From Gemmatimonadota bacterium (GTDB taxonomy: Bacteria > GCA-2686955), in the NCBI GenBank assembly GCA_002686955.1, contig NYZA01000143.1:6974-70973 (forward strand): a DNA stretch of 64,000 nucleotides, in the 5' to 3' direction. Below are positions 48,953 through 49,811 of this stretch, one piece after another. Each line of letters begins with the position of its first letter. The first letter of the stretch is position 1. Under the pieces are notes generated by a model. It saw only the letters and a list, made by a program, of their open reading frames with translations, did no database searches and was not told where the DNA came from. The translations under genes and the position numbers were made by a program.

Positions 48953-49330
48953 ATGGCACACGAACCACAACCCGACGAGATGGTCTACTACGACCGAGAC
49001 GAGCTCTCGAACGTGCGAATCGCCCTTCCCGAAACGGGATGGATGGATACCCCGGTGGATCTGCGGCCCGGGAGCTTCATCTATCCCGCGAAGGGCAAGC
49101 ACCTCGAATACCTCGGGATGGCGAATCCCAGGCAATGGGCGCCGGCCGATCAAGACTGGAAGCTGCCCAGCAACTGGAAGGAGATCATCATAGACGGTAT
49201 CCGTGAGCGCCTGGACAAGTACCGTTCATTCCAAGTGTTCATGGATATCTGCGTTCGTTGCGGCGCCTGCTCCGACAAGTGTCACTTCTACATCGGAGGC
49301 GGCGATCCAAAGAACATGCCTATTCGGGAG
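48953..49330 (+). pseudogene. dsrK: dsrK N-terminal fragment (HdrD-like; about 125 aa incl. CVRCGACSDKCHFYIGGGDPKNMP)
   Basis: The first ~125 codons of ORF 48953..49534 match the DsrK N-terminal ferredoxin region. The frame then diverges, and the remaining ~400 aa (CCG domains) are absent. Confidence 0.6.
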
Positions 49331-49811
49331 TCGCAGCTACTGGACATTGCTTGGTGTCCTGGCTCTCATGGTTCTCGCCGGATTGTCCTGCTACCTCTAC
49401 CAGTTGAAGATCGGGCTGACGATTACCGGCTTGTGCCGGGACGTGCCCTGGGGCTTCTACATCTCGCAGTTCACCTTTCTCGTCGGCATCGCTGCGTCGG
49501 CGGTGGTGCTGATGTTGCCGTACTACCTACATGATTTCAAGGCGTTCGGGAAGATCGTGATCCTGGGCGAGTTTCTGGCGATCTCAGCGGTGATCATGTG
49601 CATGCTCTTCATATTCGTGGACATGGGACAGCCGACCCGTGTGCTCAATGTTGCTCTCTTCCCGACTCCGAATTCGCTCATGTTTTGGGACATGACGGTT
49701 CTCTTCGGCTATCTGGTGCTCAATGTCGTCATCTCCATGGTGACGTTTCGGGCTGAAATGCAGGGGGTTCAACCGCCAAGATGGATCCGCCCGAAGCTAC
49801 AGCCGGAATAG
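49331..49811 (+). pseudogene. dsrP: dsrP (NrfD/PsrC family) N-terminal fragment joined out of frame to dsrK; C-terminally truncated
   Basis: The alternate frame from about 49330 reads [66 protein letters not shown]..., the N-terminal NrfD-family pattern. Only about 160 aa remain before the stop at 49811. dsrJ and dsrO are absent. Confidence 0.55.

Follow-up and report, generated by a model that had tools for sequence, protein, structure and literature searches.

The window analysed here, a 64,000-nucleotide (nt) stretch of a metagenome-assembled genome (MAG) whose taxonomic label, Gemmatimonadota, is NCBI's naming of the MAG, raises the question of what becomes of a dsrMKJOP operon in which the start of dsrK runs directly into dsrP. 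An earlier note on this DNA had described such a join at 48953-49811 and had taken it for an operon that collapsed by internal deletion and was then overwritten by replacement. We compared the window with fetched relative loci (L-numbered contigs). Judged on the sequence, the dsrK-dsrP observation is correct, far beyond chance. Very probably the region no longer functions and is what remains of a dissimilatory sulfate/sulfite-reduction cluster that a planktonic marine Gemmatimonadota lineage inherited vertically.

Scans of the genome_contigs and metagenome_contigs collections returned relatives at 60-75% amino-acid (aa) identity, which served for protein-level mapping and were too distant for nucleotide breakpoints. 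A DsrC homology search led to much closer references, namely a sister lineage and intact operons, and these allowed breakpoints to be placed at the nucleotide level. Two long contigs (L087 and L088) were left out as references; their operons are broken by apparent frameshifts that are probably sequencing errors.

The dsrK-dsrP join

Two overlapping plus-strand open reading frames (ORFs) span the join, at 48953-49534 (193 aa) and, in the +1 frame, at 49203-49811 (202 aa). Residues 57-130 of the first match positions 9-82 of the 453 in the NCBIfam DsrK model (NF045796; E 1e-31, 110 bits), in agreement with the earlier identification of a DsrK N-terminus starting at 48953. This score lies below the equivalog cutoff of 400 bits, which the intact DsrK of L179 passes with 735 bits. 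There is no Pfam CCG match in the dsrK remnant, and its single Pfam similarity is a partial Fer4_8 hit (positions 2-33 of 68) at 21.8 bits, under the 27-bit cutoff. The dsrK 5' remnant (48953-49321, +) comprises codons 1-123, ends in ...CVRCGACSDKCHFYIGGGDPKNMP and holds the first Cys motif only; it is 75% identical to residues 1-130 of L179 DsrK and lacks about 77% of the gene's length, including the catalytic CCG part. The fusion that had been proposed therefore stands, with its estimate of about 125 dsrK codons corrected to 123 by the nucleotide alignments. DsrK similarity ends at ...NMP, where relatives continue with VLRAELLRS, and the frame then runs as 70 meaningless codons through dsrP (49322-49534, +) to a stop at 49532-49534.

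In the second ORF, residues 38-185 match positions 4-147 of the 346 in the NCBIfam DsrP model (NF045798; E 1e-58, 199 bits), and the Pfam NrfD/PsrC family (PF03916) is recognized at 72.1 bits against a gathering threshold of 25.8. These family-profile checks bear out the description of the +1 frame as NrfD/DsrP-like. The DsrP score again falls short of the equivalog cutoff (350 bits; L179 DsrP reaches 446), and the Pfam match covers only model positions 7-120 of 313, which points to family ancestry and not to an intact member. The dsrP remnant (49320-49793, +) lies in the +1 frame with respect to dsrK, lacks a proper start codon and retains codons 6-163 of about 389, which make up the N-terminal transmembrane part. 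It is thus dsrP, as had been said; it is not an internal fragment, being the N-terminal 40% (codons 6-163 of 389). About 60% of the gene's length is missing. The remnant is 82% identical to L179 DsrP and 92% identical to that of the sister lineage. A search of solved structures gave no match for the DsrK stub, and for the DsrP stub only a distant NrfD-family match, Alternative Complex III subunit C. When the 158-aa DsrP fragment itself was used as a homology query, all matches listed were at most 276 aa long and at most 75% identical; since length or word sampling biases this list, it is no evidence of absence. The idea that DsrP has no close intact relative was accordingly dropped once the DsrC search had led to the full-length sister DsrP, 92% identical, and to intact operons.

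Nucleotide alignments fix the point at which the two genes meet. The dsrK match to L176 (sister), L179 and L181 (both intact) stops at 49320 in all three, and the dsrP match to L176 takes over at 49320. This places the junction at 49320/49321 (deletion junction 2; +). It connects dsrK codon 123 with dsrP codon 6 out of frame (+1), with a breakpoint overlap of 1-2 nt (C/CT). With a slash at the breakpoint, the window reads AAC ATG CC/T ATT CGG GAG, the sister dsrK ...ATGCC/GGTCCTC and the sister dsrP ...GCAC/TCTTTGGAAGTCGC. The segment missing between the two sides measures 2,442 nt in L179, 2,449 nt in L181 and 2,297 nt in L176, and 2,471-2,494 nt in nine more distant relatives. What has been lost, about 2.44 kilobases (kb), is the 3' three-quarters of dsrK, all of dsrJ and dsrO, and dsrP codons 1-5, taken out by one deletion running from dsrK codon 124 to dsrP codon 5. 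Consistent with this, tblastn with DsrJ and DsrO queries from L009, L013 and L179, and with DsrT from relatives, found no match in the whole window, which upholds the statement that dsrJ and dsrO are lost. A repeat search around the dsrK-dsrP junction found nothing relevant. Distant relatives had suggested in-frame recombination at a TGCGGG motif common to dsrK and dsrP; this idea was given up in view of the near-blunt join seen against the sister.

Further deletions between dsrT and dsrP

The closest intact references are L179 and L181/L182, whose DsrC is 89% identical to that of the window. In L179 and L181/L182 the genes follow in the order dsrA, dsrB, a small ORF, a GltD/DsrL-like gene, dsrN, a DVU0298-family gene, a TPR gene, dsrC, dsrT, dsrMKJOP and cysG, and the intact clusters carry aprBA and lysR on the opposite strand. 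The small ORF, which occupies the dsrD position in L179, had no family match and is not named DsrD here. DsrA, DsrK, DsrP and CysG of L179 all score above their NCBIfam equivalog cutoffs. Downstream of cysG, L179 has a coenzyme A (CoA)-disulfide-reductase/rhodanese-like gene and then, convergently, a dehydrogenase. The ancestral order given by the intact relatives is hence dsrC-dsrT-dsrM-dsrK-dsrJ-dsrO-dsrP-cysG-(CoA-disulfide-reductase-like gene), followed by the convergent dehydrogenase. Both intact loci and the partly intact L176 align to the window on both sides of its junctions, as expected of a deletion relic. That homology resumes beyond each join, with dsrMKJOP whole in L179 and L181, supports the earlier view that the deletion is real.

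Upstream of the dsrK remnant, dsrC (47717-48034, +) is intact, encoding 105 aa with both C-terminal cysteines and matching Pfam DsrC over its full length (130 bits). Its product is 89% identical to the L179 and L181 proteins and 97% identical to that of the sister. The spacer that follows (48035-48157, +) runs up to deletion junction 1 at 48157/48158: positions 48091-48157 align to the sister spacer and the very start of dsrT, and from 48158 onwards the window aligns to dsrM of L179 and L181. Junction 1 joins the start of dsrT to dsrM codon 68, leaving about 0.69 kb unaccounted for in L179 coordinates; a single deletion has taken dsrT together with the first 67 dsrM codons. The remaining dsrM is a pseudogene of codons 68-330 (48158-48949, +), 69% identical to residues 68-330 of L179 DsrM by tblastn. 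It is interrupted by an in-frame TAG at 48326-48328, where alignments place a conserved TGG (Trp) in the relatives; a TGG-to-TAG change truncates what is left of the gene. The part after the TAG corresponds to positions 116-320 of 320 in NCBIfam DsrM (NF038037).

At the other end, dsrP homology ends at 49792-49794, and homology to the sister's dehydrogenase flank already starts at 49783. Deletion junction 3 is the 12-nt block GGATCCGCCCGA between these points (49783-49794, +), which aligns with dsrP (codons WIRP) as well as with the final codons of the CoA-disulfide-reductase/rhodanese-like gene. The sister keeps both copies, GGATCCGCCCCA in dsrP and GGATGCGCCCAA in the dehydrogenase flank, identical to each other at 10 of 12 positions, and the window has one. 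Where the DsrP of relatives goes on as ...WI(K/R)P-IIxLSIPWA, the window goes on as KLQPE and a stop. These are the reductase-like gene's last codons and native stop (49794-49811, +), fused in frame to the dsrP remnant and overlapping the dehydrogenase 3' end by 15 nt. The aligned tails read ...GGLHALHRMRPNLQSE (HRMRPNLQSE) in the sister, ...GGLHALRRIAPEIFRA (RRIAPEIFRA) in L179 and ...WIRPKLQPE in the window, each ending in a stop. The gap corresponds to 4,235 nt in L179, and the roughly 4.2 kb lost held dsrP codons 164-389, cysG and the reductase-like gene except for its last codons. Recombination across the imperfect 12-nt direct repeat could have removed this segment, from dsrP codon 164 to the last reductase-like codons. 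The imperfect repeat sets junction 3 apart from junctions 1 and 2, where breakpoint overlap is only 0-2 nt.

The convergent neighbour is an intact nucleotide-sugar dehydrogenase of the uridine diphosphate (UDP)-N-acetyl-hexosamine type (49797-51107, −), matching TIGR03026 over positions 2-413 of 413 (446 bits) and carrying three Pfam domains; its stop codon is the complement of 49797-49799. In L179 about 3.5 kb separate dsrP from the convergent orthologue downstream, with cysG and the CoA-disulfide-reductase-like gene lying in between. Because it occupies the same place there, the dehydrogenase is a native neighbour, and the 3' truncation of dsrP is a second deletion. The replacement step of the earlier interpretation consequently fails: about 4.2 kb went missing, and nothing was inserted. 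The dehydrogenase, which is still in use, bounds deletion 3: the loss came to a halt just before it.

Taken in sequence order, the window reads as the ancestral cluster reduced by three clean deletions, with a single nonsense codon besides. Collapse by internal deletion is thereby confirmed and extended, since the scar first noticed is one of at least three deletions accompanied by a nonsense codon in dsrT-dsrP alone, and a sister lineage has been eroded differently. Retained parts are 69-89% identical to L179 at the aa level. Nothing between 48158 and 49796 is capable of making a working DsrMKJOP subunit. Illegitimate or microhomology-mediated recombination, or replication slippage, could have produced the deletions, and loss of selection for sulfate respiration may have permitted them.

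Sister lineage, timing and competing explanations

The sister lineage shares about 82% nucleotide identity with the window over the flanking backbone, and its dsr locus is contained in L176-L178 (L176 1-6570). It retains dsrC, dsrT codons 1-88, dsrK codons 80-542, dsrJ, dsrO, a full dsrP of 386 aa and cysG. Its deletion runs from dsrT codon 89 to dsrK codon 79 and takes all of dsrM with it, and dsrK is frameshifted in L176 and L178. Window and sister remnants overlap only in dsrK codons 80-123, from which it follows that the common ancestor had the whole operon and that the two sets of deletions are independent.

To place the loss in time we compared rates of non-synonymous (dN) and synonymous (dS) change. 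Between window and sister the dsrP fragment gives dN 0.048 and dS 1.05, a dN/dS of 0.045, compared with 0.045 for the dehydrogenase and 0.039 for dsrC. The dN/dS of the 44-codon dsrK overlap was unreliable, owing to the sister indel/frameshift, and was not used. In the dsrM, dsrK and dsrP fragments none of the 104 residues invariant in 25 intact homologues has changed, and G+C at third codon positions is 0.74-0.78, like that of live genes. The low dsrP dN/dS and the unchanged invariant positions indicate that erosion is recent: as a rough estimate, dsrP would have been under purifying selection for nearly all the time since the sister split, with inactivation falling in about the last few percent of it. 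Polarized with L179 and L181, the dsrP replacements divide into 7 on the window branch, 2 on the sister branch and 4 ambiguous. Three of the seven, S44C, V62I and V70M, hit sites at which 23-24 of 25 relatives share the same residue.

How secure is the relic interpretation? The anatomy, the breakpoints, the collinearity with intact relatives, the fixation in the sampled population and the independence from the sister deletion can each be read from the alignments, and nothing contradicts it. Several points nonetheless weigh on the other side. A second intact dsr copy is possible elsewhere in the genome, beyond the window. The 1-2-nt overlap at junction 2 is too short to assign a mechanism, and the ecological cause of the loss is conjecture. 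The excess of 7 over 2 replacements is not significant alone (one-sided binomial ~0.09), and the window-sister dS is near saturation (~1), which makes the timing estimate rough. A broader proposal, that two sister planktonic Gemmatimonadota lineages have been caught midway as each dismantles, independently and only very recently, the sat-apr-qmo-dsr supercluster that both inherited vertically, is tentative, and we consider it rather doubtful.

Recent horizontal acquisition of the dsr/qmo/sat block into an aerobic lineage, perhaps as an island flanked by insertion sequences (IS), followed by decay as useless DNA, would explain why the block at 43-52 kb is lower in G+C (0.57-0.62 versus 0.61-0.72) and contains an IS701 element; the closest labelled DsrM/DsrK loci in the genome collections also carry mixed phylum labels. 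The borders of the block speak against such an origin. On the left the sister has the last ~10 codons of a DsrK-like gene beside orf267, followed by an IS66-type transposase pseudogene with in-frame stops. On its right, an IS1595-type transposase lies ~110 nt away from the stop codon of the dehydrogenase, and next comes the reductase-like gene's C-terminal end, beside the dehydrogenase. At both borders, remnants thus adjoin the same backbone genes as in the window (orf267 to the left, the dehydrogenase to the right), and they argue for vertical inheritance of the block. The more distant L179 has the cluster beside the orthologous dehydrogenase as well, so that the cluster predates the splits, and dsr and backbone genes diverge in step, with dS of ~0.5-1.0 for both. 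The top named DsrP matches among those listed are from Gemmatimonadota (Longimicrobiales, Gemmatimonadales), and inter-phylum transfer of these genes has been argued against (PMC11316326). We therefore regard a recent transfer as highly unlikely. The sister border elements are situated in L170 (8530-9422) and L175 (4212-4753), and the contigs end inside them.

Could the fragments still be used? A DsrK'-DsrP' product made by +1 ribosomal frameshifting, or a small ferredoxin-like DsrK stub together with a four-helix NrfD stub, would fit with two open frames of 193 and 202 codons, with 0 of 104 invariant positions changed and a low dsrP dN/dS, and with the proteins that gene callers predict at the locus. 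However, recent inactivation accounts for the low dN/dS, as live neighbours have the same value over the same divergence, and the window branch carries S44C, V62I and V70M at highly conserved sites. The DsrK stub has one Cys motif and no CCG domains, the DsrP stub only 158 of ~389 residues, the partner dsrM is 5'-truncated and interrupted by a TAG, and dsrJ, dsrO and dsrT are gone. Continued use of the pieces has very slim prospects.

That a chimeric or collapsed contig joined dsrK to dsrP in an organism with an intact operon, conceivable in principle for a window taken from a MAG, a data type prone to local misassembly, has practically no chance of being true, given five contigs from different samples and assemblers that match the window without a difference at all three junctions, no dsrK/dsrP repeat able to collapse an assembly, and a sister whose own, different deletions in the same operon make decay biological in the clade. 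The misassembly that the earlier note had entertained is refuted by these five assemblies.

This sampling grew out of an exact look-up of the DsrC protein, which led to contigs with the same gene layout in several marine metagenome assemblies, including Tara Oceans and different assemblers; matching contigs were 99.96-99.99% identical to the window, with no gaps. The five contigs that cover 48953-49811 (L001-L005; a SPAdes NODE contig, MEGAHIT k127 and k119 contigs and two TARA scaffolds) did so with 0 mismatches and 0 gaps, and no intact allele from the same population was seen among the assembled contigs. A sixth record is an NCBI MAG, "Gemmatimonadetes bacterium", with proteins identical to the locus (MAE70744-MAE70751), in which the DsrP stub is annotated as a hypothetical protein and DsrC as "TusE".

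Wider erosion of the cluster and its meaning

Set against the DsrMKJOP complex of sulfate reducers and sulfur oxidisers, the window fragments are unambiguous dsrM, dsrK and dsrP orthologues in canonical order after dsrC. In contrast to that complex, the window has no complete subunit, dsrJ and dsrO are absent, and the five genes do not form a contiguous operon. Compared with the intact clusters of L179, L181 and L182, gene order is the same, as is the flanking dehydrogenase in L179, and the window adds the deletions, an IS701 insertion and the nonsense mutation. The decayed sister operon resembles that of the window in pairing an intact dsrC with a clean internal deletion; it differs in its breakpoints and in keeping dsrJ, dsrO, dsrP and cysG, which the window lost. 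Gram-positive sulfate reducers that naturally lack DsrJOP have a full-length, functional DsrM and DsrK. The resemblance to such DsrMK-only organisms, M and K sequences before missing J and O, is superficial. Since both dsrM and dsrK are truncated here and a DsrP stub remains, the locus is not a minimal DsrMK module.

Decay extends upstream of dsrC, and except for the deletions and the IS the locus and the intact cluster are collinear. Two neighbouring genes, the TPR gene and dsrC (47116-48034, +), are intact. The sister too has an intact dsrC despite destroyed DsrMK genes; the gene could be kept by selection for a DsrAB-independent function, or simply not have been hit yet. If selection does keep it, DsrC would have a role without DsrAB or DsrMK in bacteria of oxic waters. 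Ahead of the TPR gene lie a remnant of the DVU0298-family gene (46857-47102; residues 68-149 of 155) and one of dsrN, which is cobyrinic acid a,c-diamide synthase-like (46211-46807; residues 127-325 of 486). The dsrN remnant and the sequence just beyond it also hold the strain-level variation seen in L006: all 8 differences from the window fall inside 46420-46916, about 500 nt, and none in the 1.7 kb after 46916. This clustering may reflect a local hot spot of polymorphism, or a strain segment that is recombined or chimeric.

An IS701-family element (44900-46215) with 19-nt imperfect terminal inverted repeats (44900-44918 and 46197-46215) sits exactly where L179 has aprBA-lysR-dsrAB-dsrL-5'dsrN. 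Its transposase ORF (44918-45958, −) matches the family model in two pieces, and the transposase is probably degenerate. Adjacent to it, at 43538-44884 (−), a 448-aa frame joins a QmoA/B-type, HdrA-like flavin adenine dinucleotide (FAD)-binding N-terminus (aa 1-85) in frame to a complete QmoC (NCBIfam qmoC positions 7-360 of 360, 356 bits), and an in-frame deletion has apparently taken most of qmoA and qmoB. The sat gene is intact. Directly downstream of it are the last 54 codons of a DsrK-like gene with Fer4 and CCG domains (42036-42197, −), which match the C-terminal end of an 872-aa ORF in L100 at ~80% identity; of these codons the sister has only about 10 left.

Operon decay by deletion is a well-known process, and the locus is a new example of it, ordinary but well resolved, and no new kind of system. 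A literature search found no description of a dsr relic at this locus, nor of dsr relics in planktonic Gemmatimonadota. From intact, to eroded one way, to eroded another, the three states form a base-pair-resolved series for the loss of a large respiratory cluster, in which a small number of deletions, on the scale of kilobases and with hardly any or no homology at their ends, each stop at the border of a gene that is still needed, and in which the losses are recent and independent in two lineages. DsrAB, Sat, AprAB and QmoABC have been reported in marine sediment Gemmatimonadota, in work that argued for an ancient origin of the trait within the phylum (PMC11316326). Our results support the suggestion made there that sulfite/sulfate reduction is an old trait of marine Gemmatimonadota, and add that planktonic members are shedding it. 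Should the dismantling of the whole supercluster prove true, it would mark a departure from anaerobic sulfur respiration in the pelagic ocean that happened repeatedly and can be dated.

For metabolic inference the locus carries a warning. The MAG still gives matches to DsrC, DsrM (through the Pfam nitrate reductase gamma-subunit family), DsrP (NrfD), QmoC and Sat, and marker- or module-based pipelines could credit a planktonic Gemmatimonadota lineage with a partial dissimilatory sulfur metabolism beyond its ability.

The base composition of the wider region is a separate matter. Over 43000-52000 G+C is 0.57-0.62, compared with 0.61-0.72 in most of the window, and this tract includes the live dehydrogenase and response-regulator/histidine-kinase genes, so that the low G+C is not specific to the pseudogenes.

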